Positions 4,191-42,653 of a stretch of DNA of 64,000 nucleotides are shown here, piece after piece. The stretch covers positions 422,327 through 486,326 of the forward strand of contig CAYGOD010000002.1 in assembly GCA_964351525.1 (NCBI GenBank), given 5' to 3'. The notes below the pieces were generated by a model. It was not told where the DNA came from. It did not search any database and worked only from the letters and a program-made list of their open reading frames with translations. A program made the translations under genes and the position numbers. The stretch comes from an uncultured Bdellovibrionales bacterium (GTDB lineage: Bacteria > Pseudomonadota > Alphaproteobacteria > Micavibrionales > GCA-2720935). The stretch's first letter is position 1, and every line of letters starts with the position of its first letter.

Positions 4191-5756
4191 TTATTTAGCT
4201 TTTGATTGATGGGCTTCTGGAATTTCCAAACCATCATCATTATATTGGCGTAATTTATTGCGTAATGTGCGAATTGAAATGCCTAAAATATTGGCAGCAT
4301 GGGTGCGATTGCCCAAACAATGATCCAAGGTATCAATGATTAAATCACGTTCTACATGGGCAACCGTACGACCAACAAGGGCAGAGGTTGCTGTATCTGG
4401 CGCACTCTCATTTGGCGCGGTTTCGACTGTTGCCGGTGTCGATGTACCAGCCACTTCATCATCACCAAACGGCGTTAACGAATCTGCAGAATAAGGATTG
4501 CCAGCCGCAACTGGCACAGCTTGTGCTGCTTGCGGTGTTGGATTATCAAGACCAGAACTATTCCCCAAAACGCCGCTCGATGAGGGCGGGGAACCATAAG
4601 GATTAGCTGGTGAAATTTGTTGTGTAGGTGCTTGGGCAGGTGTCGCCGGTATCGGTGCTTGACCAGCAAGGATAATCGCCTCTGGTTCAATATGATCTTC
4701 TGTTGAAATTAACACGGCGCGGTGCATTGTGTTTTCAAGCTCGCGGATGTTACCACGCCACACATGATTAAAAATTTTGTGCATAGCCCCTTCGGAAACT
4801 TGCTTAACAGGCATATCATTTTGACCTGCATATTTTTGGACAAAAAATGTAGTTAGTTTGGCCAAATCCTGACGACGTTCACGCAAAGGCGGCAATAATA
4901 AATTCACGACATTAAGGCGGAAATATAAATCCTCCCGAAAATTCCCGGCCATTACTTCGCGTTGTAAATCACGGTTACTGGTTGCCAACAAACGAATATC
5001 AACCTTGACTGGCTTACCGCCACCAAGGCGATCAATTTCTTTTTCTTGAATAGCACGCAGTAATTTCGCTTGTAATAGAGGGTGCATCTCACTCACTTCA
5101 TCAAGTAAAAGCGTGCCACCATCGGCCTCTTCAAATTTACCAATACGCCGCGCAACAGCACCGGTAAAGGCGCCTTTTTCATGACCAAATAATTCAGATT
5201 CAAGTAAATTTTCCGGAATTGCCGCACAGTTTACAGAGATAAAACGACCATTGACGCGAGGGCTGTTCTCATGAATAAAGCGCGCCATGACTTCTTTACC
5301 TGTACCTGATTCACCGGTAATTAATACGGTGGCGGTACTAGGTGCAATTTGTTTTGCCATTTTCATGACAGGGATCATCGCGGGATCATCGGCAATCATG
5401 GAGCGATCTTCTTGCGTAACGGCGGCTAAAACCGCAGCAATAAGCTCAGCATCAGGCGGCAAGGGAACATATTCTTTTGCCCCTGATTTAATTGCACGAA
5501 TAACAGATTGTTTGTCATTGCCAATACCACAAGCAACCACAGGAATGGCAATACGTTCTAATTTCAACTGATCGATAAATTGCTTCACATCTTCTTTAAC
5601 ATCAATCATGACTAACTCAATGCCGTCACCATTACGCAGGGCAATTAAGCCCTGTTCAATTGTTGTGGAATGCATGACTTTGGCACCGCGTGATAGTGCG
5701 ATTTTACCAGCGTCTGAAATATGACCTTCTAGATGTCCAATAATAAGAAGTTTCAT
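4191..5756 (-). CDS. flbD: Sigma-54-dependent transcriptional activator, FlbD-like (degenerate receiver + AAA+ + Fis-type HTH)
   Basis: Walker A GESGTGKE, the GAFTGA loop (ESELFGHEKGAFTGA) and a C-terminal HTH (GNRTHAANILGISIRTLRNKL). The N-terminus MKLLIIGHLEG lacks the acidic pair of phospho-receivers. Its position downstream of fliF-fliG-fliH-fliN matches the Caulobacter fliF operon, and fliX is present in the window. Confidence 0.85.
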   Translation of the reverse strand: MKLLIIGHLEGHISDAGKIALSRGAKVMHSTTIEQGLIALRNGDGIELVMIDVKEDVKQFIDQLKLERIAIPVVACGIGNDKQSVIRAIKSGAKEYVPLPPDAELIAAVLAAVTQEDRSMIADDPAMIPVMKMAKQIAPSTATVLITGESGTGKEVMARFIHENSPRVNGRFISVNCAAIPENLLESELFGHEKGAFTGAVARRIGKFEEADGGTLLLDEVSEMHPLLQAKLLRAIQEKEIDRLGGGKPVKVDIRLLATSNRDLQREVMAGNFREDLYFRLNVVNLLLPPLRERRQDLAKLTTFFVQKYAGQNDMPVKQVSEGAMHKIFNHVWRGNIRELENTMHRAVLISTEDHIEPEAIILAGQAPIPATPAQAPTQQISPANPYGSPPSSSGVLGNSSGLDNPTPQAAQAVPVAAGNPYSADSLTPFGDDEVAGTSTPATVETAPNESAPDTATSALVGRTVAHVERDLIIDTLDHCLGNRTHAANILGISIRTLRNKLRQYNDDGLEIPEAHQSKAK

Positions 5757-5775
5757 TTTGGGTCTCTTATCCTTT

Positions 5776-6615
5776 TTATTTACCTTTAAAGAAGTTCAAA
5801 CGGTTTGTTGGCGCCACGCTGTTATTGAGAACAATTTCTAAACGACGCGGGTTTTCATGTTTTGCCATAGAGATCGCCGCCTGTAATATCAAACGTCTCT
5901 CTGAGTTTTCTTCCAATGAATTTTTTTCTAATTTTGACGCGATGGGCGACAAAATGACTGTCCCCAAGAATGCACCATAGAGTGTCGTTAAAAGGGCAAC
6001 AGCCATAGAGGGTCCAATGATTGATGGGTCATCTAATTGTGCCAACATTTGCACCAAACCGATCAATGTACCAATAAGCCCCATTGCTGGCGCGACCTCA
6101 GCTGCACGATAGAGCAGTTCCGCTGATTTTTCATGACGGTCTTTAACAGCCTCAATCTCGCCTAACATAATACGCTGAATATCTGGCGCGGTATAACCAT
6201 CACTGACATAACCAAGGGCACGTTTTAGGGTTGGATTGCGTCCAGCGTCTTTCTCAATAGACTGTAGAGATAAAACACCATGTTTTTTGGCAATGACGGC
6301 AATTTCCAAAAGGGTCTTTAATAATGTACGGCTGTTGAGTGGTTTTTTGGTTATCGCGCGCGCAACAATAGTTGGGGTGCTAAGGATGTCACTGATACTG
6401 AATGACATCATCGTCACGGCTATTGTACCACCAACAACAATAAGGAGAGACGGTACGTTCAAAAAAGAATTTAAATTTCCCCCCATATAAAGCGCCATGC
6501 CGATAAAGCCAATAGCGCCAATAAAGCCCAACACTGTTGCACTATCGGTTTTTGATTTTACCGCAGGGATAAAAATTCTAGGGACGTCCCCGCCTTTTTT
6601 GTCATTATCTGCCAT
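5776..6615 (-). CDS. motA: MotA/PomA-type flagellar stator channel protein
   Basis: 279 aa with 4 predicted TM segments and the MotA/TolQ/ExbB C-terminal core (…PAMGLIGTLIGLVQML…MAVALLTTLYGAFLGTVILSPIASKL…). No motB is adjacent. Confidence 0.85.
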   Translation of the reverse strand: MADNDKKGGDVPRIFIPAVKSKTDSATVLGFIGAIGFIGMALYMGGNLNSFLNVPSLLIVVGGTIAVTMMSFSISDILSTPTIVARAITKKPLNSRTLLKTLLEIAVIAKKHGVLSLQSIEKDAGRNPTLKRALGYVSDGYTAPDIQRIMLGEIEAVKDRHEKSAELLYRAAEVAPAMGLIGTLIGLVQMLAQLDDPSIIGPSMAVALLTTLYGAFLGTVILSPIASKLEKNSLEENSERRLILQAAISMAKHENPRRLEIVLNNSVAPTNRLNFFKGK

Positions 6616-6640: not shown

Positions 6641-7009
6641 TTATGTGCGGTCAGATTTAATAATTTCTGTCATGGTAACACCAAGGCGGTCTTCGTTAAT
6701 AACGACCTCACCGCGGGCAACCAAACGATCATTCACGTAAATGTCAACGGCTTCTCCAACACGGCGATCCAATTCAACAACAGCACCACGACCTAACTTT
6801 AAGAGCTGGCTTACTTGCATTGTTGATTTACCGAGAACGGCAGAGATTTGCACAGGGATATCATAGATAGCCTCTACGTCTTTCTCTGTTGCACCGGGGG
6901 GGGCAAAATCAGATGCGCTTAGTGCGCCGCCTTCATTTTCATGTGGGTTTTCACCAATGGCTTCATCGGCACCAAAATCCATGTTTTCTAGTTCTGTGTC
7001 ATCAGTCAT
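6641..7009 (-). CDS. fliN: FliN, C-ring switch protein
   Basis: 122 aa. The C-terminal SpoA domain reads IPVQISAVLGKSTMQVSQLLKLGRGAVVELDRRVGEAVDIYVNDRLVARGEVV. It contains a C8 homopolymer on the coding strand (6896-6903). Confidence 0.9.
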   Translation of the reverse strand: MTDDTELENMDFGADEAIGENPHENEGGALSASDFAPPGATEKDVEAIYDIPVQISAVLGKSTMQVSQLLKLGRGAVVELDRRVGEAVDIYVNDRLVARGEVVINEDRLGVTMTEIIKSDRT

Positions 7010-30648: not shown

Positions 30649-30838
30649 TGATTTGGTTCCTTGAGCCTTGGTAGCCGAAAGTGATCGTGTAAATATAGCG
30701 ACCATATGTATGTATAAGTTCTTGAATAAAGGGGTGAAAATACCCTATAGTTTTATAGGTCTATTTATAAAAGCGTTCTTGCTTTTAATTGTAGCTCAAA
30801 ACAAAAGACAATTTACGGCAGGAAAATGGAAAAAATCA

Positions 30839-31384
30839 ATGGTTGCTGATGCACAAGAAAATGATGAAGCATTCGATGATGAAGGCGCCGTTGAGGGTGA
30901 AGAAGCCCTAGGCGAAGAAGAGTCTGGGGGGTTTGGACCCAAACAAATCGTCTTGTTTATTGTTTTACCACTTTTGATTTTGGTCGGTGTTGGTGCCGGT
31001 CTCTATTTTGGCGGCTTTATTGGTGGCGGCGATGAGGCCCCTGTAGCAGCCGAAGAAATTATGGTTGATGATAAAAGTACGGGTATTTTCTATGATTTAC
31101 CTGATGTGATCGTAAACTTGAGTAATACAGGTCGTAAACCGCGCTTTTTAAAAATCAGTATTTCTCTGGAACTCGCAAAAACAGAAGATACCGCTTTGAT
31201 CGAAACGGTACTACCACGCGTCATGGATCATTTTCAAACATATCTACGTGAACTGCGTGAGCCGGACTTGCGCGGATCTGCCGGTATTTACCGTTTAAGA
31301 CTTGAATTATTAGCGCGTGTTAATGCCGCTATTTACCCTGAACAAGTTCGCGATATATTATTTAGGGAAATTTTGGTACAATAA
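30839..31384 (+). CDS. fliL: FliL, basal-body-associated protein (ATG at 30839 preferred over the TTG at 30668)
   Basis: It has an acidic N-terminus, one TM (IVLFIVLPLLILVGVGAGLYF) and the FliL core …RFLKISISLELAKTEDTALIETVLPRVMDHFQTYLREL…. Confidence 0.85.
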   Translation: MVADAQENDEAFDDEGAVEGEEALGEEESGGFGPKQIVLFIVLPLLILVGVGAGLYFGGFIGGGDEAPVAAEEIMVDDKSTGIFYDLPDVIVNLSNTGRKPRFLKISISLELAKTEDTALIETVLPRVMDHFQTYLRELREPDLRGSAGIYRLRLELLARVNAAIYPEQVRDILFREILVQ

Positions 31385-31514: not shown

Positions 31515-32642
31515 ATGACAGATCAGAACGCAAATATCGATAACGCCGAAACGGAAGACATGTCCGAAGAAGAGCGTAAGATGATGGAGGAATGGGATTC
31601 CATGGCCGATGGCGATGCTGTTGCTGATTCCGCTGATGGTGGTGTCTCTGCTGATGTAGATGATGAGCTTGGCGAAGATGGCGAAGCGCGTATTCTTAAT
31701 CAAGACGAAATTGATAGCCTCCTTGGCTTTGATGGCGATGAAGAAGGTGGTGAACGTTCTGGTCTCAAAGCCTTGGTTAATAGTGCCATGGTCAATTATG
31801 AGCGTCTGCCGATGCTCGATATTGTTTTTGATCGCCTTGTCCGCCTCATGTCAACAAGTCTGCGTAACCTTACATCTGATAATGTTGAAATTAGTTTAGA
31901 TCAAATTTCATCTGTTCGTTTTGGTGATTACCTTAACTCAATTCCTTTACCTGCTATGTTGTCTGTCTTTAAAGCCGAAGAGTGGGATAACTATGGCTTG
32001 ATGACTGTTGATAGTTCTTTGATCTACTCTGTAGTCGATGTTTTACTCGGTGGACGCCGTGGTACATCTGCAATGCGGGTTGAGGGTCGTCCCTATACAA
32101 CAATTGAGTTGCGTCTTGTTGAACGCATGATTACCGTGATGTTAGCTGATTTATCCTCTGCATTTGATCCGTTATCGCCTGTTACTTTCCGTATGGAGCG
32201 TATCGAAACCAATCCGCGTTTTGCTGCAATTACACAAGGAAATAATGCCTGTGTCTTGATAAATATGCGTGTGGATATGGGGGACCGTGGCGGTCGTGTT
32301 GAAATTCTCATCCCTTATGCAACCTTAGAGCCTGTGCGCGAATTGCTTTTACAGATGTTTATGGGTGAAAAATTTGGCCGTGATTCAATTTGGGAAAATC
32401 ACTTAACCAATGAGCTTTATAAAACAACGATTGAACTAGATGCTGTTTTGGGTGAGGCGACGGTTTCTCTTCATGATGTATTAAACTGGAAACCAGGATC
32501 AAAAGTTATTTTAGATAGTTTCCCCGAAGATCCTGTTGAAATGCGCTGTGGCGCGTTTCCTATGTTCCTTGGAACACCTGGTCAAAAAAAGGGCAATATT
32601 GCCATCCGTATCCAAGAAGATATTGAGAAAAAACCCGATTAA
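31515..32642 (+). CDS. fliM: FliM, C-ring switch protein
   Basis: 375 aa with the N-terminal CheY-binding-type motif ILNQDEIDSLLGF, the FliM middle domain and a SpoA C-terminus. Confidence 0.95.
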   Translation: MTDQNANIDNAETEDMSEEERKMMEEWDSMADGDAVADSADGGVSADVDDELGEDGEARILNQDEIDSLLGFDGDEEGGERSGLKALVNSAMVNYERLPMLDIVFDRLVRLMSTSLRNLTSDNVEISLDQISSVRFGDYLNSIPLPAMLSVFKAEEWDNYGLMTVDSSLIYSVVDVLLGGRRGTSAMRVEGRPYTTIELRLVERMITVMLADLSSAFDPLSPVTFRMERIETNPRFAAITQGNNACVLINMRVDMGDRGGRVEILIPYATLEPVRELLLQMFMGEKFGRDSIWENHLTNELYKTTIELDAVLGEATVSLHDVLNWKPGSKVILDSFPEDPVEMRCGAFPMFLGTPGQKKGNIAIRIQEDIEKKPD

Positions 32643-32679: not shown

Positions 32680-33099
32680 ATGTTTGCCCTTGGTTTAGAT
32701 TTCCTGATTTTGATTTTGTTAGCGATAGCCATCGTTTTCACATTCAAGCTATATAAACAATTACAGGATTTTAAGAAAAATAAAGAAGATTTCTTAAAAG
32801 CCATTATGGACTTAAATACGGCAACCGGAAGCGCCGAGCGCGCCATAGCAGGCTTGCGTCATAATTCAGATGAAATTGCGGGTAAGCTTCAAAGTGAAAT
32901 GAGTGAGGCCCAAAAATTATTTGATGAATTACATTTTATGAATGATGCGGGTAATAACTTGGCGCAGCGTTTGGAAAATTTAGCCGAAAAAGCCAACGAA
33001 TCCCATGGATTAAAGCAACCATCGGCGAAAAAAGCACCAAAAATAAAAAAGCGCACAAAAGCCGAAGAGGATTTGTTGAAAGCTTTGAAGGATAGTTAA
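32680..33099 (+). CDS. Small membrane-anchored coiled-coil protein of the fliLM unit (function unknown)
   Basis: 139 aa with an N-terminal TM (LDFLILILLAIAIVFTF), a helical region and a basic C-terminus. It abuts the next ORF, with a 1-nt gap. Confidence 0.5.
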   Translation: MFALGLDFLILILLAIAIVFTFKLYKQLQDFKKNKEDFLKAIMDLNTATGSAERAIAGLRHNSDEIAGKLQSEMSEAQKLFDELHFMNDAGNNLAQRLENLAEKANESHGLKQPSAKKAPKIKKRTKAEEDLLKALKDS

Positions 33100-33921: not shown

Positions 33922-34305
33922 GTGGTTGATAAGTCGATGAATGTTTTGGTTGTGGACGATTACGCAACAATGCGCCGTATTATTAAGAATCTTTTGAAGC
34001 AATTAGGTTTTAACAATATCCAGGAAGCCGCCGATGGCAAAGAGGCCTTTGCTCTTGCCGGTAAGACAAAGTTTGGTCTGATTATATCGGATTGGAATAT
34101 GGAGCCCATGACAGGTTTAGAGCTCCTTAAGCAAATCCGTGCAACAGAGGCGACCAAGGCTACACCTTTCATCATGATTACGGCCGAGAGTAAAACGGAG
34201 AATGTTATCGCCGCCAAACAAGCAGGCGTTAATAATTATATTGTTAAGCCGTTTAATGCTGAAACATTAAAGCAGAAAATGTCGAGCGTTATCGGAGAAT
34301 TCTAA
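33922..34305 (+). CDS. cheY: CheY response regulator (GTG 33922 or ATG 33937)
   Basis: VLVVDD…LIISDWNMEPMTGLELL…ITAESK…YIVKPF. All receiver signature residues are present and it is a single-domain protein. Confidence 0.9.
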   Translation: MVDKSMNVLVVDDYATMRRIIKNLLKQLGFNNIQEAADGKEAFALAGKTKFGLIISDWNMEPMTGLELLKQIRATEATKATPFIMITAESKTENVIAAKQAGVNNYIVKPFNAETLKQKMSSVIGEF

Positions 34306-34307
34306 AT

Positions 34308-34934
34308 ATGGATAAGCAAAATACAATTGATGCGGTTAACGAAGACGCAACAGCAACAATGGAACAAATGGGCCGTCCTTTTTCCAAGGATGAGGTCTTA
34401 AACATCATTAATTCTGTTGTTGGTAAAATTGAGACCAACAAAACACATCCTATTTATAAAGATCTTAAGGCCTTGGCTGATTATATAGAAGAGTCGCGTC
34501 GTGAGATATCAAATCTTGCTCCTATTGCTATTGGGCAAGAACATATCCCTTCTGCCACCGACGAACTTGATGCTGTTGTTAAATCGACTGAGGAGGCAAC
34601 GGGTAAGATCATGGATAATTGTGAATTATTAGAAGTCACAGCCGAAAAAATAACAGATGAGGGTAATAAAGAGCGGGTGCTTGAGGCCGTTACAAATATT
34701 TATGAAGCATGTGGATTTCAAGATATTACGGGACAACGTATCGCAAAGGTTGTTAACACATTGCGCCATATTGAAACACAAGTGAATATGATCGTTGAGG
34801 CCGTTGGTTTGGAAGTCGGGGCCTCGGATGATCTAGAAAAAGACGGCGATGAGGCCTTGTTAAACGGGCCGCAAATGCAATCTCAAGCGATTAATCAAGA
34901 TGATATTGACGCGCTTTTGGCGAGTTTTGATTAG
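34308..34934 (+). CDS. cheZ: CheZ-type CheY-P phosphatase
   Basis: Catalytic motif GFQDITGQRIAKV (E. coli has FQDLTGQ) and a C-terminal CheY-binding-like peptide QDDIDALLASFD. Confidence 0.85.
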   Translation: MDKQNTIDAVNEDATATMEQMGRPFSKDEVLNIINSVVGKIETNKTHPIYKDLKALADYIEESRREISNLAPIAIGQEHIPSATDELDAVVKSTEEATGKIMDNCELLEVTAEKITDEGNKERVLEAVTNIYEACGFQDITGQRIAKVVNTLRHIETQVNMIVEAVGLEVGASDDLEKDGDEALLNGPQMQSQAINQDDIDALLASFD

Positions 34935-35038: not shown

Positions 35039-35719
35039 ATGAAACGTAACTCTGCCTCAACACAACTTTTATCGCTCGCGCTGTTTATCGTTATTCTGGC
35101 GTTTTTTATCGTGTTAAATACAATTTCTGATTATCGTGAAGACAAGGTTATCCCTGTTCTTGCCTCACTTGAGGCAGCGTTTGCGTCACAACTTATTTCG
35201 GCTAAGGGTTTGCCGTCCGAAACAGAGAATTTCGAAGATGTTGATTTATTCGCTGGCTCTGCGCTTGATGCGCTCGATGTATCATTCCGCAATGCTTTTG
35301 ATCTTATTTCGTCGAAACGCATCGATGGCGGGCGCGGTCTTGAAATCGTATTGGATAAAAAGACCTTTCAAAACGCGATGGAGCAAGCCAATAATACTGC
35401 CTTTCAAAGCTTAATGGAAAAGATGTTTGATATATCACGGGAGAATGCGTTTCTTATGCATGTTGTTGGACGCGCTAAAAACCCTTATGACGCCCCCGCA
35501 GACGAGGTGTCATCAATTGGTTTTTACATGATGAATGCTGGTTTTTCACCCTCTTTTTTAACGCTGTCGATGGAACACGGTGATCCCGCTAGTTTGGCAT
35601 TTCGTTTTTTGCGTGATAAGCGTCTTATTGTTATGCCTAGTCAGGTGAGTGACGATAAAAAACGGGATGAAAAGAAGCCAAATGAAGTGCCCAATGAAGT
35701 AAAGGGTGGGCAAGAATAA
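35039..35719 (+). CDS. MotB-like single-TM protein lacking the conserved Asp and lacking OmpA-type PG-binding residues
   Basis: 226 aa. The N-terminal TM STQLLSLALFIVILAFFIVL resembles the MotB TM, but Q replaces the proton-relay D. The periplasmic part has MotB/OmpA-like topology only. Confidence 0.4.
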   Translation: MKRNSASTQLLSLALFIVILAFFIVLNTISDYREDKVIPVLASLEAAFASQLISAKGLPSETENFEDVDLFAGSALDALDVSFRNAFDLISSKRIDGGRGLEIVLDKKTFQNAMEQANNTAFQSLMEKMFDISRENAFLMHVVGRAKNPYDAPADEVSSIGFYMMNAGFSPSFLTLSMEHGDPASLAFRFLRDKRLIVMPSQVSDDKKRDEKKPNEVPNEVKGGQE

Positions 35720-36399
35720 TGTCATCATCTCTTAGCGATCATTTTAATACAACCGATTTGCCGCCCGCAAATACTAAAAAAATTGAACGACAGGCAACGT
35801 GGCTTATATCATTCACGGATGTGATTAGTCTGATGTTGGCGTTCTTTGTTTTGTTGTTTTCTATGAAACAACCAGACCAAGATAATTGGACAAAAGTACT
35901 GTCAACGTTAGACGGCGAAGCAAAACAATTTTATGGGATGCCTTTTGTTGCGGGCAATGCCGATCAAAATAATATTTCATCGATTAAAAAGAATAAAGAA
36001 TTCGCGTTGAACTATATCGAAGCATTAATTAAGCATTATATAGAATCCGCAGGAACATTATCCACGGTTGATATGGTGCGTTATGAAGATTTTATCATTA
36101 TGTCAGTCCCCTTGTTCGATGCTAGCTATAAACAAGAAGCTCAGAGCTTAGCGCGCGCCTTGGGACGCATTGATAATAAAATTGATATGGTTGTTTATGC
36201 ACAAAAACCATCAGAATTAACACAAGCGCTTGCTAAAGCGCAGGGCTTTGGTAAGATTCTAACTGAGGCTGGTTATAATAAAGATATTACGTTGTTGAGC
36301 CAAACGCATGAAGATGCGGATGAACTAAAACGTACAATTAATTTTAAGGGTGCTGATATGATTTTGCGTATGACCATCCATAATGGCGATAAAAAGTAA
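35719..36399 (+). CDS. MotB-like stator protein candidate (Asp-containing TM; degenerate OmpA-like domain)
   Basis: 226 aa. WLISFTDVISLMLAFFVLLFS matches the MotB plug/TM with the conserved Asp (aa 34). In the C-terminus, YAQKPS…ELTQALAKAQGFGKILTEAGY stands where GHTD…NxxLSxxRA is expected. The start overlaps the previous stop (TAATG). Confidence 0.5.
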   Translation: MSSSLSDHFNTTDLPPANTKKIERQATWLISFTDVISLMLAFFVLLFSMKQPDQDNWTKVLSTLDGEAKQFYGMPFVAGNADQNNISSIKKNKEFALNYIEALIKHYIESAGTLSTVDMVRYEDFIIMSVPLFDASYKQEAQSLARALGRIDNKIDMVVYAQKPSELTQALAKAQGFGKILTEAGYNKDITLLSQTHEDADELKRTINFKGADMILRMTIHNGDKK

Positions 36400-36407
36400 A
36401 AAGATAG

Positions 36408-39400
36408 ATGATAAAACATAAAAAACAGATAATAAAAAGGCGCGTTTTAACGTCTTTGTTTGTGGCGGGTCTTTGTGGCGGTCTGTTTTTTATCATGCCT
36501 GATGAAATAAAAATATCACCAGCAATGGCACAAGAACGCGGACAGATTAAGATTATTGATTTGTCAAAACCGACATCTAGAAACACCTCAAAGAACCCCG
36601 TTCGTTCATCATCTTCAATATCTACGGTTGCTAAAACGGCGATTAATGTGCGGACAGCCCATCATCCTAGTTATGATCGTATTGTTTTTGATTGGGGGAG
36701 GCGTACTGCTGTTATGCGCTCTGATGATAAAACAACAGCGGGCGATAATCGTGTACGTCTGAAATTTGATTATCCAGGGTCGTTGCCTGCATCAGTTACA
36801 AACAAAGAAAATTTACCGCGTGTGAAAAGCTTAAAGATTTTAAACACCAATCCCTTAGAGATTGAAATGGTCTTAAATAATGCTTATATGAAACGCTCTG
36901 AATTGGGGTCTCGTATTGTTTTTGATTTTTATGACATTGAACAGGCTGTGCCTAATGCAGGGCGTTCTGTGACAGACACAGCGTCACCTATTGAACAGCC
37001 TACCCTTGAAAAAAAGCAGTCGGCCACAAGAGATAAGTCAGGCGCACAAATTCTCATTGTGCGCGGTAATAAGGCAGCAGAGCCAGCGCCTATGTTGAAA
37101 GCAGATAATGTATCAAATGCGAACGAAGGACCGCTGGTGAAAGCCCAGATAGATGAAGCGGTTAATGACGATGAAGTTAATGATGATGCAGATATATCAG
37201 CGCCATCTCTATCGAATGTTTTAGAAAAGAGACAGGTCGGTTTTGAACGCACATCAAGGGCGGTACCGCAACCGAATGTATCGCTTGATGATATTGCGAT
37301 GAATGATGAAAATTTATCACCGCGTGAGCGTGCTGTTCAAAATGCTATTCGCAAGGCAGGTCAAGATATTATTGGCTTTAATCAATCTCGTTTGAAGGTG
37401 GGGGATAGTGTCTCTATTTCTTCTTTGAAGCCATTAAAGCTAGCTGTTTTTAGACGGGGAAACATTTTATGGATTGTACAATCAGATAAGCGAAAATCGG
37501 TACCGCCTGTTGTTAATAGCGCACAGCAAATTAACGTTAATCCGTTAGACGATCAAAGCGGTAACGCGCAGGCATGGCGTTTTCCAATTGATGAAGCCGC
37601 GCATTTCAATGTGGTGAATAATGAATTCTCATGGGATGTTCAGGTGACAGACAGCTATGTCCAAGATCCCTCCCTTGATATCCGTTCGGAAAAAATCGAT
37701 TATCGCGGGCAGGAAACATATGCCCTGATCATGAATGTTGAGCGTCCATCAACGGTGCTTTCATTTAGTGATCCTGTATTGGGGGATAAGATATTTGCCA
37801 TACCGTTGCATCAAGATCGTTTGAAGGTCAACATTGCCCAAACCCTGCCTGAGTTTTCATTTATCCCCGCGGATGTTGGTGTTGTGGTGAAACCACAAAC
37901 GCAAACATTAGAGCTGTTTTTTGAAAATACGGACCTATTTATCACTAATCGTGAGGGGCTAATGGTATCAGATGCCTTAGCCTCATCTTCTATGAGCTTT
38001 TCTAAGAAAAATAAAGGTGATAACAAAAGCCAAGCACGCTTATTTGATTTAGAAAACTGGTTTGTGACAACGCCGCAAGATTTCCAAGACCATCGCCGTG
38101 TCTTTGAAAATCAAGCCGCTGTAACATCGGATCAGAATGAGCGTATTCGTAATATAATTGATTTGGCCAAGCTGTATTTCGTTAATGGGTTTGGGTCAGA
38201 GGCTGCTGGTTTAATGCGTATGGCAAAACAAGATGATAAGCGTCTTGTCGATAATATAACATTTTTGGCACTTGAGGGGGCAGCTCTGTCATTAGCTGAT
38301 CAATATGATAAGGCAGCAATATTACTTGAAGATGGTCGTATCTTTGATCAACCAGAAATCGCCCTTTGGCGTGGTTATTCTAACGCTCGCCAAGGAAAGT
38401 GGAGAAAAGCCTATGATGATTTTGCCGCTACGGGTAATTTGGTCATGGAATATCCAGATACCTTAAAACCACGTCTTTTAAAAATGATGGCAGAGGCCGC
38501 ATTAAATGTTCAAGATGTTATCAATGCCGAGAACTTAATCAATGTGTTCGATGGTCTTGATAACGCAACTAGAAAAGATGACTCTGCGACACAATTCTTT
38601 AAGGGTAAATTGGCTTATTTAAACAAAGACTATGATAAGGCGAAGCCATATTTACAGGCGGCATCTAACGGCTCTGATCGTTATTACCGCGCAAAGGCGG
38701 CTTTTGAGTTCTTAAAGCTTCAAGAACAAACGGATTCAATTACAACCGAAGAAGCGACCGAAATTTTGGAACGTTTGCGTTATATATGGCGCGGTGATGA
38801 TTTTGAAATTAACGTGACAGAGCATTTGGGCGATTTCTATATTGATAAGGGTCAATATCGTGAGGGTCTTAATACACTGCGTTCCATTATTCCTTTGTTG
38901 GAAAATGATCAAGAAAAAACTGAAGAAATAACACAAAAACTAACCCAAACATTTGGGGCATTGTTTATCGAAGATCGCGCGGATAAGAAATTACCGCCGT
39001 TAACGGCCTTGGCCCTTTATAATGAATTTAGTGAGCTAACGCCAAGCGGTGCAGACGGTGATCGCGCCATTCAGAATTTGGCGGAACGTATGGTTGATGT
39101 TGATCTCCTTGACCGTGCCGCATCCTTACTTGAACACCAAATTAAATTCCGTTTAGAGGGTGAAGAAAAGCAACGTGTTGCAACACGTTTGGCGGCTATT
39201 CGTCTGATCGATAGTTCACCAACGGCAGCAATCGAAGCGCTGGATCGTTTGGAAGGTGAAATCTTGCCAGATGATCTCAAAGAACAAGGTTTGCTTTTAC
39301 GTGCGCGCGCCTTGTCACAATTGGGACGCCCTGATGATGCTATTAAAATTTTATCTGGACTGAACAGCGAAGATGCACATCGTTTGAATATCGACACAAA

Positions 39401-39812
39401 TTGGCGTGCTAGCAGATGGATGGATGCCGCGCGCGCGATTGATCCTTTGTTGGACTATACACTCGATAAAGAAGATCTTGTTTCCGATGGGGGACAGGTC
39501 GTGCGCCTTACGCCAGAAGCCTCTGATCTTGTGTTGAACAAGGCTGTGGCTTTCGTTTTAGCGGGCGAACAAGGCGAGGTTCGCGAATTATTCCGCACCT
39601 ATGGTTTAGCAATGCAAGGTACGCGCAATGCAGACTTATTCACGCTTATTACCCGCGCGCCCAAGCCGGGTGAATTGGCAGATCTTTCAACACTACAATC
39701 GCATGTATCAGAAGTTGATATGTTCAATAGTTTCTTAGAGGCCTATCGACGACCTCCATTGACTGAGAACGCTCCAGAGGCCGAACCGACCGACGATATT
39801 CAGGGTGGATAA
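36408..39812 (+). CDS. Large exported AMIN-like + TPR repeat protein
   Basis: 1134 aa with a signal peptide/anchor (…FFIMPDEIKISPAMA-QE). An N-terminal region carries two RIVFDW / RIVFDFYD beta-motifs typical of AMIN domains, and the C-terminal half has many TPR-like helices. Confidence 0.5.
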   Translation: MIKHKKQIIKRRVLTSLFVAGLCGGLFFIMPDEIKISPAMAQERGQIKIIDLSKPTSRNTSKNPVRSSSSISTVAKTAINVRTAHHPSYDRIVFDWGRRTAVMRSDDKTTAGDNRVRLKFDYPGSLPASVTNKENLPRVKSLKILNTNPLEIEMVLNNAYMKRSELGSRIVFDFYDIEQAVPNAGRSVTDTASPIEQPTLEKKQSATRDKSGAQILIVRGNKAAEPAPMLKADNVSNANEGPLVKAQIDEAVNDDEVNDDADISAPSLSNVLEKRQVGFERTSRAVPQPNVSLDDIAMNDENLSPRERAVQNAIRKAGQDIIGFNQSRLKVGDSVSISSLKPLKLAVFRRGNILWIVQSDKRKSVPPVVNSAQQINVNPLDDQSGNAQAWRFPIDEAAHFNVVNNEFSWDVQVTDSYVQDPSLDIRSEKIDYRGQETYALIMNVERPSTVLSFSDPVLGDKIFAIPLHQDRLKVNIAQTLPEFSFIPADVGVVVKPQTQTLELFFENTDLFITNREGLMVSDALASSSMSFSKKNKGDNKSQARLFDLENWFVTTPQDFQDHRRVFENQAAVTSDQNERIRNIIDLAKLYFVNGFGSEAAGLMRMAKQDDKRLVDNITFLALEGAALSLADQYDKAAILLEDGRIFDQPEIALWRGYSNARQGKWRKAYDDFAATGNLVMEYPDTLKPRLLKMMAEAALNVQDVINAENLINVFDGLDNATRKDDSATQFFKGKLAYLNKDYDKAKPYLQAASNGSDRYYRAKAAFEFLKLQEQTDSITTEEATEILERLRYIWRGDDFEINVTEHLGDFYIDKGQYREGLNTLRSIIPLLENDQEKTEEITQKLTQTFGALFIEDRADKKLPPLTALALYNEFSELTPSGADGDRAIQNLAERMVDVDLLDRAASLLEHQIKFRLEGEEKQRVATRLAAIRLIDSSPTAAIEALDRLEGEILPDDLKEQGLLLRARALSQLGRPDDAIKILSGLNSEDAHRLNIDTNWRASRWMDAARAIDPLLDYTLDKEDLVSDGGQVVRLTPEASDLVLNKAVAFVLAGEQGEVRELFRTYGLAMQGTRNADLFTLITRAPKPGELADLSTLQSHVSEVDMFNSFLEAYRRPPLTENAPEAEPTDDIQGG

Positions 39813-39859: not shown

Positions 39860-40599
39860 TTGTCTATATTCCTCATTCTTGGCGTGGTTTTTCTTGTCGC
39901 ATCCTTGGTCCAATCTGCAATCGGATTTGGGTTTGGGTTGTTAGCGATTACTCCTGCCTTGCTTTTGTTCGAGCCTGTTCTCGCGGTACAGATTGTCATC
40001 TTAGGAAATCTATTTATGGCGTTATTAATGTCTCCTCTATTAAGAAAAAGCATACCAAAAAACGATTATTTAGGTTGTGTGCGGGTAGTCTTTTAGGCTT
40101 TCCTCTTGGCATATTCGCTGTGCAACATCTTGATGTGAATATGTTGAAAATTTCGGTTGCTGCTCTTATTTTATTAACAACAGTGCATATGATTTTCTAT
40201 AATGGTGAGCCAAAAGAAAAGGCCGTGAAAAATCAAAAAATACACGGTACGAATTATATCATTGGTTTAATCTCCGGTGCGTTAATGAGCGGTCTGTCAA
40301 CACCAGGTCCCGTTATTATGCTGTACTTATCTAAGCTGCGTTTAAATAAAGACGAGGTTAGGGCGACTATTTTGGGGTTCTATGCATTGGCTTATGCGGG
40401 GGCTGCATTAACGCAATATATAATGGTGGGGTTTTCAAGCCAGCTTTATGATCTCATCTGGTCTATGATCCCGTTTATTATTCTTGGTGTTGTGATAGGT
40501 CATTTGGTTGCCAAACATATCAAGCAAAACATGTTTCGCATGATAGTTCTGACAGTTCTAATCGTCTCATCTGTTTATACAATTTGGGTAACGGTCTAG
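39860..40599 (+). pseudogene. TSUP/TauE-SafE family anion exporter interrupted by a frameshift
   Basis: ORFs 39860-40096 and 40075-40599 are in different frames and together form one 4+4 TM TauE-like protein. The frame switch maps to A-runs at about 40045-40062. Confidence 0.7.
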
Positions 40600-41818: not shown

Positions 41819-42121
41819 TTATGATTGTTTAATGTTATTTTGAATGGCGCGCGCCAAACGATCAAGCGTTATAATCATCTTTTTTAAAAGCGGTTCAAAA
41901 TTCCGGGCTTCTTTACCGGGCAATGATTGTACTTTTTCGCAAAGACGTGTGATTTTCTCATCCAGCCCGATCATCGAAACATCATCACCGCCAAGGCTCT
42001 CGGTTGTCTTGTTTTCCAACGTTTCCACCATCATAGCAATCTCTTTGGTTAATAAAGCCAAGAGAGTAGGATCAGCATGTTGTGTCATCTTTTGCGTCCT
42101 TTTCTGGTGCGGATTTTTCAT
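41819..42121 (-). CDS. Small helical hypothetical protein in the fliOP unit (start uncertain)
   Basis: 100-aa ORF. It overlaps the upstream ORF's end unless a later Met (42088 or about 42034) is the true start. Confidence 0.4.
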   Translation of the reverse strand: MKNPHQKRTQKMTQHADPTLLALLTKEIAMMVETLENKTTESLGGDDVSMIGLDEKITRLCEKVQSLPGKEARNFEPLLKKMIITLDRLARAIQNNIKQS

Positions 42122-42524
42122 TTTTCTCTTTCTCTATTGCTGCTTTTTTAGCATATTCTTTGAGCAGAGAGAAATCAGGTTTATAGCTTTTTGGTAATGT
42201 GCCATTAGCTTTGTAAACTTGGATCAAAATTTCTGCAACGGCCACGATGGCTTCTGTTGGAATCTCATTGTCTAGTTCTACAAGTGATAGGATTTCGGCT
42301 AGATCGGCGTCTTTTCTAACTTTTACACCTTGGGCAAAGGCCATTTCTAATATTTTTTCAGCCACCGCGCCGTGCCCGCTGGCTGTTATGATCGGCAGTT
42401 CATTGGTATTATCACGATCATTCTTAAGGGCAATCGCGACTTTTTTCTTATTTTTATCGTCAATCTTATCATCACCAAGGGGGCTGATAATCTGATCAAT
42501 TTGGGAGTTGTCGCTTTTTTTCAT
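42072..42524 (-). CDS. FlhB C-terminal-domain-like protein (EscU/YscU/FhlB family); start taken at MKKSDN
   Basis: ITASGHGAVAEKILEMAFAQGVKVRKDADLAEILSLVELDNEIPTEAIVAVAEILIQVY resembles the stand-alone FlhB-C paralogues. Confidence 0.65.
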   Translation of the reverse strand: MKKSDNSQIDQIISPLGDDKIDDKNKKKVAIALKNDRDNTNELPIITASGHGAVAEKILEMAFAQGVKVRKDADLAEILSLVELDNEIPTEAIVAVAEILIQVYKANGTLPKSYKPDFSLLKEYAKKAAIEKEKNEKSAPEKDAKDDTTC

Positions 42525-42653
42525 GATTGGCACGTTTTTCGCAAGTCTATACCGTAGGAAGTGATTTGTTCGTGTGAGAATAGCAAGTTTTTCCGCTTTT
42601 GGCGAAAAATAAAGATAAATCAGCGTCAAAAACTGTTAAAATAATTAAAAATA

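Follow-up and report, generated by a model that had tools for sequence, protein, structure and literature searches.

In the 64,000-nucleotide stretch analysed here (the window; contig CAYGOD010000002.1 of an uncultured Bdellovibrionales bacterium, classified by GTDB in the Alphaproteobacteria), a flagellar gene cluster carries three consecutive genes related to the stator, namely two open reading frames (ORFs) of 226 amino acids (aa) each, ORF1 and ORF2, and a gene for a presumably exported protein of 1134 aa. The textbook stator is anchored by MotB, which binds peptidoglycan. ORF2 is the real MotB of this cluster and keeps the channel aspartate, but it has lost the residues that contact the wall; ORF1 belongs, according to profile comparisons, to a family of MotB paralogues without the channel aspartate; and the large protein resembles periplasmic scaffold proteins of the MotK/PflA type. 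Taken together, it is on balance probable that the stator is held by a protein scaffold, that the contact of MotB with peptidoglycan is dispensable, and that ORF1 acts as a structural partner.

Based on its sequence and position, ORF2 is orthologous to a MotB of 235-313 aa that at least 58 related genomes encode at the corresponding place. ORF2 matched the Pfam MotB_plug model with 45.2 bits (cut-off 24) over a plug at residues 25-64, and the proton-relay Asp that a preliminary description of this DNA had reported in its MotB-type transmembrane (TM) segment is D34 (35818-35820), within WLISFTDV. Residues ~92-226 form a degenerate OmpA-like domain, for which no Pfam OmpA match was obtained, and few direct homologues of ORF2 are present in a collection of 5.8 billion proteins. 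Among 64 MotB orthologues, MotB_plug matched all 64 and Pfam OmpA 55; the consensus, GHxDP...SNWxLSLARA...RRVDIVI, is the classical OmpA-type motif. The channel Asp occurs in 64/64 of them, the wall-contact Asp in 52/64 and the wall-contact Arg in 52/64, while none of the residues invariant in all 64 (W28, D34, L38, L40, F42, F43, Y99, and N153) is a wall-binding one. At the columns where canonical MotB has its wall-binding Asp and Arg (GHxD ... NxxLSxxRA), ORF2 carries Q and K, and it has also lost the loops on either side, in agreement with the earlier view that its peptidoglycan-contact residues are missing.

ORF2 falls in a small marine clade of seven members (ORF2, its 86%-identical relative, three metagenomic relatives, the TARA Oceans contig L001, and the metagenome-assembled genome (MAG) L007), all of which are without both wall-contact residues and also without ~13 and ~17 residues of the pocket-forming loops. 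The residues at the Asp/Arg columns vary within this clade (Q/K, P/E, K/A, E/A, Q/L, and F/I), and therefore no alternative pocket is conserved. When a profile of the window clade alone was compared with the PDB, MotB structures were matched over the TM and plug only, and no OmpA-like structure was found. The C-terminal domain of the clade aligned with the domain of the canonical orthologues over 138 columns (hhalign 99.4%, E 1.6e-21), which supports ORF2 as a MotB with an OmpA-like domain that no longer carries the peptidoglycan motif. Measured against the 86%-identical relative, the ratio of nonsynonymous to synonymous substitution rates (dN/dS) of ORF2 is 0.05 overall and 0.058 in the C-terminal part, compared with 0.04 for fliM and 0.05 for cheZ. 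This homology and the low dN/dS indicate that the domain is maintained by purifying selection, though apparently not for the usual peptidoglycan binding. Outside the window clade, both wall-contact residues are also missing from the MotB of an Azospirillaceae MAG and of an alphaproteobacterial MAG (L055, 8602-9330, and L012, 9073-9897), the Asp alone from three other MotB (L036, L037, and L063), and the Arg alone from three more (L018, L032, and L051), so the loss of the wall motif in MotB seems to have happened more than once.

The relatives were recovered by anchoring on the large downstream gene, which gave 80 loci from named genomes, including Thalassospira, Magnetovibrio, Kiloniella, Pelagibius, Micavibrio, Thalassobaculum, Hwanghaeella, and Azospirillaceae; a species-representative genome collection contained 518 matched stretches in which a gene for a relative of the large protein was confirmed, the closest locus in that collection (42% identical) coming from a MAG labelled 'Rickettsiales bacterium SP2989'. 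The trio co-occurs across these genomes, as ORF1, MotB, and the large gene are contiguous in 58 of the 69 loci with enough upstream DNA, and in four others the ORF1-MotB pair lies close by, not contiguous. In none of the 69 judged loci does ORF1 or MotB occur without its partner. In the window, the preliminary description had placed the three ORFs correctly (Table 1), together with the TAATG overlap of the ORF1 stop and the ORF2 start at 35717-35721, while the gap between ORF2 and the large gene is 8 nucleotides (nt) instead of the reported nine. Of 63 ORF1/MotB pairs, 38 have a stop codon that overlaps the following start by 4 or 1 nt, a pattern that would fit co-ordinated synthesis of two subunits of one complex.

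Related TPR genes also adjoin motA-motB on Azospirillum replicons and occur in flagellar clusters of Roseobacteraceae plasmids. On an Azospirillum brasilense plasmid (L090; NZ_CP059453.1, 6269-10571), motA-motB is immediately preceded by the gene for a second, shorter relative of the TPR protein, of 794 aa. This plasmid-borne flagellar cluster has no ORF1-type gene, and thus the TPR scaffold and the ORF1 paralogue are separable.

ORF1 has the layout of a MotB, with a TM at about residues 10-30, a plug-like helix, and an OmpA-like domain without the wall-binding Asp, and it matched Pfam MotB_plug only below the threshold (E 0.005). At the family level, 54 ORF1 homologues aligned with the MotB family (hhalign 98.7%, E 3.7e-16) over 175 columns that take in the TM, the plug-like helix, and the OmpA-like domain; MotB_plug was found in 48 of the 54 and Pfam OmpA in none, and the family profile retrieved PomB (E 1.3e-8) as well as MotB and OmpA-like structures from the PDB. 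Profile searches thus return the MotB family for both 226-aa proteins, and not an unrelated family. The position of the MotB Asp is occupied by Ser in 38, Ala in 10, and Gly in 6 of the 54 homologues. The preliminary description was right that ORF1 is without the channel Asp, but the aligned residue is A14 and not Q9. Searching 1.84 billion representative proteins (clustered at 50% identity) exhaustively with a four-sequence profile yielded 355 clusters at E <= 1e-3, 104 of them at E <= 1e-10. Among 148 library hits, 141 have Ser (112), Ala (21), or Gly (8) at this position, and all 148 are matched better by the profile of the ORF1 family than by that of MotB; no acidic residue was found in the TM segment of either the 54 homologues or the 148 hits.

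Concerning the wall, ORF1 is likewise without the peptidoglycan-contact residues, as had been proposed, since the Asp is not conserved in the family and E156 stands at the Arg-equivalent position, which is R in 33/54 homologues. The dN/dS of ORF1 (vs the 86%-identical relative) is 0.04. Judged by these profiles, the ORF1 family is a distinct and coherent family of MotB paralogues without the channel Asp. In NCBIfam no dedicated ORF1 model was found, only sub-threshold matches to MotD, MotB, and MotS, and the Kiloniella homologue is annotated by NCBI simply as 'flagellar motor protein MotB'. Literature phrase searches for a MotB without the Asp, or without the wall motif, found no paper describing one. 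ORF1 and ORF2 share 23% identity (E 0.075); recent tandem duplication can be ruled out, as the pair is ancient and the equal length coincidental.

Given its MotB-like, highly conserved TM/plug segment and its strict coupling to motB, we favour the interpretation that ORF1 serves MotB as a structural partner and may do so within the MotA ring. A less probable, though still tenable, interpretation places ORF1 outside the MotA ring, solely as a membrane-anchored periplasmic scaffold or pillar which, in a role like that of MotY or PflB, would hold the periplasmic domain of MotB or the TPR spokes. Such a role would agree with the absence of a proton-relay residue, with the conserved OmpA-like domain and its Arg-equivalent in most family members, and with the inner-membrane pillars known in the Campylobacter scaffold, but the TM is conserved far beyond the need of a plain anchor. 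The near-invariant residues are L13, L15, L20, F22, F23, I24, L26, and S30, and the core L-A/T-F-F-I/V is common to the TMs of ORF1 and MotB; the frequent MotB_plug matches and the widespread stop/start overlap with motB also argue against a mere pillar.

If ORF1 enters the ring, it could fill one of the two B-subunit places in the MotA pentamer, giving an asymmetric MotA5:MotB1:ORF1-1 unit with a single proton-relay Asp in hundreds of Rhodospirillales-type species; the stator of the window clade would then have no peptidoglycan-binding B subunit at all and be held purely by a scaffold of the MotE/MotK type. This specific stoichiometry is a rather doubtful proposal. The AglRQS gliding motor of Myxococcus, in which two different TolR/MotB-type subunits (AglQ and AglS) share one MotA/TolQ-type channel, offers a precedent for a heteromeric B-subunit pair; unlike ORF1, both of these subunits keep an acidic channel residue, and the motor is non-flagellar.

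The large protein begins with a sequence that is signal-peptide-like by eye: its n-region is basic, a hydrophobic core follows, and residues 39-42 read AMA-Q. An AlphaFold2 model built from an 18-sequence alignment had a mean predicted local distance difference test (pLDDT) score of 71.6. The AMIN motifs reported earlier fall in an AMIN-like beta-sandwich of this model, but the two 'RIVFD' motifs mark the halves of a single domain and not two domains. Pfam AMIN-like matched the window protein below the threshold (E 3e-4) and 9 of 18 family members (best E 2.8e-6). Residues 179-303 are disordered (pLDDT < 50), and residues 330-515 are beta-rich, resolved by a separate model into two eight-strand sandwiches, of which the first (residues 334-414) aligned with the AMIN-like region (hhalign 96.9%, E 1.5e-10). 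Residues 334-514 are the most conserved part of the large-protein family, ahead of the N-terminal AMIN-like domain and the TPRs, with F348, R350, W355, R391, W409, P456, D460, and G491 invariant; for this part, the sole Foldseek match was a weak one to PilQ, and searching the PDB with a profile of the middle domain returned nothing. The TPR-like character of the C-terminal half was borne out by an alpha-solenoid at residues 556-1114, for which TPR Pfam matches are sub-threshold in the window protein and significant in 8 of 18 relatives.

Compared with the PDB by Foldseek, the whole model was matched best by chain K of 9HMF (9hmf_K; E 5e-11, 12% identity), although TPR fold matches are promiscuous. 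The structure 9HMF is the periplasmic scaffold of the Campylobacter jejuni motor, and the length of chain K (773 residues) suggests mature PflA. A weak tblastn link connects the large protein with flagellar-cluster proteins of ~617 aa on Roseobacteraceae plasmids.

The preliminary description suggested that the anchoring function may have moved from MotB to its neighbours. This was not upheld, because ORF1 and the large protein adjoin a fully canonical MotB in most relatives; the accessory proteins therefore predate the degeneration of MotB, and nothing 'moved'. For the same reason, the AMIN/TPR protein as an adaptation to the loss in MotB can be ruled out. Anchoring by accessory proteins instead of MotB is reasonable and has a published precedent; what fails is a replacement arising with the loss. 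The distribution of these genes shows ORF1 and the scaffold protein as ancestral partners of canonical MotB, and MotB most likely became dispensable as a wall anchor within a stator already held by the scaffold.

The arrangement that we propose, with its physical interactions and its anchoring logic, is read from the directly observed gene identities, orthology, residue losses, purifying selection, and conservation of the trio. The TM Asp and the plug of ORF2 would sit inside a pentamer of the MotA encoded in the same window; the large protein, presumably exported, most likely supplies, by analogy with described homologues, TPR spokes to which the MotE-like protein and MotB (by its periplasmic part) bind, and its AMIN-like domains may hold the scaffold to the wall or the motor. 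ORF1, a non-conducting MotB paralogue, would be made in step with MotB; most likely the two pair by way of the OmpA-like domain and the conserved TM/plug segment, and ORF1 would thereby serve the stator unit as a structural partner. With the stator positioned by a protein scaffold, direct binding of peptidoglycan by MotB would be dispensable; the window clade has lost the binding residues and pocket loops, while the domain was probably retained as a protein-protein interaction module.

Several points weigh against this interpretation. The large gene stands alone, without an adjacent motB, in 7 of the 69 loci. Most relatives have one additional N-terminal AMIN-like domain, which the window clade and the Micavibrio group are without, and the clade with the degenerate MotB hence shows no sign of compensation. 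The assignment of an AMIN domain at the N-terminus depends on Pfam matches that are sub-threshold or found at the level of the family, a PDB profile search of the AMIN region returned no AMIN structure, and the link of the large protein to MotK, FssB, and PflA is based on architecture, fold rank, synteny, and literature. In addition, the survey of stator genes covers 64 kb of the genome, and a canonical motB or pomB may lie elsewhere.

From the last point it could be argued that ORF2 is a sidelined or specialised MotB, with a working wall-anchored B subunit (MotB or PomB, perhaps with a second MotA or MotY) encoded outside the window, in which case the loss of the wall motif would be uninformative on anchoring. 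Many bacteria do carry several stator sets, and the best NCBIfam match of MotA is PomA-like and below the cut-off. We consider this unlikely, since ORF2 stands at the orthologous position where the flagellar clusters of relatives have their only observed MotB, its TM Asp and plug are intact, its dN/dS is as low as that of fliM and cheZ, the degenerate form has been maintained across clade members just 30-40% identical, and no second MotB or MotA occurs in the window. It is very improbable that ORF2 still binds peptidoglycan by means of a non-canonical pocket in its OmpA-like domain, leaving the wall anchoring of MotB unchanged, for although the core secondary-structure elements of the fold can all be aligned and purifying selection acts on the domain, the two residues that contact the ligand have been replaced, and differently so among clade members, the loops around the pocket are deleted, and the clade-only profile finds no OmpA-like structure.

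The trio and the genes around it (Table 1) make up the stator and stator-scaffold block of a Rhodospirillales-type alphaproteobacterial flagellar cluster, in the order fliL-fliM-DUF6468-motE-(cheY-cheZ)-ORF1-motB-motK/pflA-like. The MotE-like gene noticed earlier upstream of the stator genes encodes a protein with an N-terminal TM, a coiled coil, and an MgtE_N-like C-terminal domain. Its matches are both below the cut-off (Pfam MgtE_N E 2.5e-4; NCBIfam collar_FlbB E 8.8e-5) and its position is conserved in all relatives compared; the weak matches and the synteny point to a MotE/FlgY/FlbB-like protein and candidate E-ring subunit. The DUF6468 protein may be equivalent to PflI, as suggested by its position in the fliL-pflI-motE order.

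Table 1. Flagellar stator, scaffold, and neighbouring genes or domains in the window (positions of the 64-kb stretch; residue numbers refer to the 1134-aa protein).
Feature	Position	Strand	Evidence
ORF1, Asp-less MotB paralogue, 226 aa	35039-35719	+	ORF list
ORF2, motB orthologue, 226 aa	35719-36399	+	ORF list and Pfam MotB_plug
MotK/PflA-like periplasmic scaffold protein, 1134 aa	36408-39812	+	AlphaFold2 model, fold match
AMIN-like beta-sandwich, residues 77-177	36636-36938	+	eight strands, pLDDT ~80-88
Two beta-sandwiches, residues 334-414 (AMIN-like) and 425-514 (unassigned)	37407-37949	+	AlphaFold2 of residues 325-520, pLDDT 89
TPR-like alpha-solenoid, residues 556-1114	38073-39749	+	AlphaFold2 helices, pLDDT 80-94
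motA, stator A subunit, 279 aa	5776-6615	-	Pfam MotA_ExbB E 2e-23
fliN	6641-7009		adjoins motA
flbD, sigma-54 regulator	4191-5756		adjoins motA
fliL	30668-31384	+	Pfam FliL E 3.9e-19
fliM	31515-32642	+	ORF; Pfam FliM and FliMN_C at orthologous position in relatives L001, L004, and L087
DUF6468 protein, TM and coiled coil	32680-33099	+	Pfam DUF6468 E 5e-20
MotE/FlgY/FlbB-like protein, 232 aa	33101-33799	+	weak matches, synteny
cheY	33922-34305	+	between motE-like gene and stator genes; Response_reg at same place in L001, L004, and L087
cheZ	34308-34934	+	Pfam CheZ E 1.5e-16; CheZ at same place in L001, L004, and L087

The motA gene, as stated in the preliminary description, has no motB beside it; it lies on the minus strand between fliN and flbD, and its best NCBIfam matches are PomA, MotP, and MotA, all below the curated cut-offs. 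A MotB-family profile run against all ORFs of at least 60 aa confirmed ORF1 and ORF2 as the sole MotB-like genes in the window. The separation is no special trait that would make motA 'orphaned', as it is ordinary in alphaproteobacteria: motA and motB are unlinked in Caulobacter, and the Fla2 cluster of Cereibacter sphaeroides reads fliL-pflI-motE-motA-motK (PMC10954123). In the window, motA is wedged into a series which otherwise reads fliF-fliG-fliH-like-fliN-flbD (4191-6615, minus strand), and FlbD reached 716 bits against the Caulobacter FlbD model, just under the cut-off of 750.

The cheY-cheZ insertion is kept in the TARA relative L001, in Kiloniella, and in the 86%-identical relative, and is absent in Roseibium (L005). 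To our knowledge, CheZ is not typical of alphaproteobacteria. A promoter and terminator scan of 30.4-40.2 kb gave counts at the shuffle level, by which no operon boundary could be defined. Downstream of the large gene, an ORF with a TTG start at 40075-40599 (plus strand) is of the TauE/SafE type and matches profile positions 69-236 only, indicating either an upstream true start or a truncated gene; between the large gene and fliP, L001 has an EamA transporter and L004 nothing. A 185-aa ORF adjoining fliP (42072-42629, minus strand) matches the C-terminal part of FlhB only (Bac_export_2 profile positions 258-335) and resembles a stand-alone FlhB C-terminal-domain-like protein; similar genes of 125-137 aa occur in L001 and L004, where the full-length flhB is also present.

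The discarding of the wall-binding residues of MotB by a free-living lineage, with the domain still under selection, can be regarded as a natural experiment that supports the scaffold-anchored model, and recent in situ studies of Campylobacter suggest that, in scaffolded motors, contact between MotB and the wall may never occur. The Asp-less paralogue, always paired with motB in a large alphaproteobacterial group, is a candidate new stator component and could change the understanding of stator stoichiometry and activation.

Compared with canonical MotB/PomB, ORF2 agrees in its TM Asp, in its plug, and in a C-terminal fold that is homologous, and differs by the absence of the peptidoglycan-contact Asp and Arg and of the pocket loops. 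ORF1 shares the overall layout, whereas both the channel Asp and the wall-binding Asp are absent in every family member examined. Periplasmic scaffolds were already treated as a second anchoring region for stators in a 2021 review. The preliminary description could name no described equivalent of the module, but its pairing of a MotE-like with an AMIN/TPR protein matches four described pairs, namely MotE-MotK, CC_2059-FssB, FlgY-PflA, and FlbB-FlcB. In later work, MotE, FlgY, FlbB, and CC_2059 have been equated as E-ring proteins, and MotK, MotC, PflA, FlcB, and CC_2058 as the TPR proteins that partner them.

In MotK of the Cereibacter sphaeroides Fla2 system, a signal peptide is followed by an AMIN-like N-terminal region, and the rest of the protein is TPR-like; MotK binds MotE and MotB2, is required for rotation, and its AMIN domain was proposed to anchor the complex to peptidoglycan (Velez-Gonzalez et al. 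2024, PMC10954123). The window protein, which is presumably exported, likewise has an AMIN-like N-terminus, disordered or proline-rich linkers, and a TPR-like C-terminal region, and its context is also alike, downstream of fliL-pflI-motE with a gene for a MotE-like partner. However, MotK, which is likened by description, has 652 aa against 1134 aa; the window protein has two extra beta-sandwiches (residues 334-514) and follows motB, while MotK follows motA. FssB of Caulobacter (CC_2058) is, by description, a Sec-exported TPR protein, adjoining the MotE-like CC_2059 and downstream of fliLM, and deletion of fssB paralyses the flagellum; unlike in the window, motB is unlinked there, and no ORF1-type gene has been reported beside it.

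PflA of Campylobacter jejuni and Helicobacter pylori consists of an N-terminal beta-sandwich, an unstructured linker, and a long superhelix of 16 TPR motifs, and is paired with the MotE homologue FlgY. It is alike in this architecture and is the best PDB fold match, but the identity is only 12%, and no genes for PflB, PflC, or the basal disk were seen in the window. According to a 2025 preprint on C. jejuni, inner-membrane pillars are present in the scaffold, the AMIN domain of PflA may contact peptidoglycan, and the scaffold separates MotB from the wall; unlike ORF2, the C. jejuni MotB keeps its OmpA-like domain. FlbB-FlcB of Borrelia is a further described pair of a MotE and an AMIN/TPR-type protein. 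The module in the window thus belongs to the known E-ring/TPR-spoke stator scaffold and is not a new kind of system. What appears to be new is the family of MotB paralogues without the channel Asp, together with the wall motif having been lost naturally from MotB.

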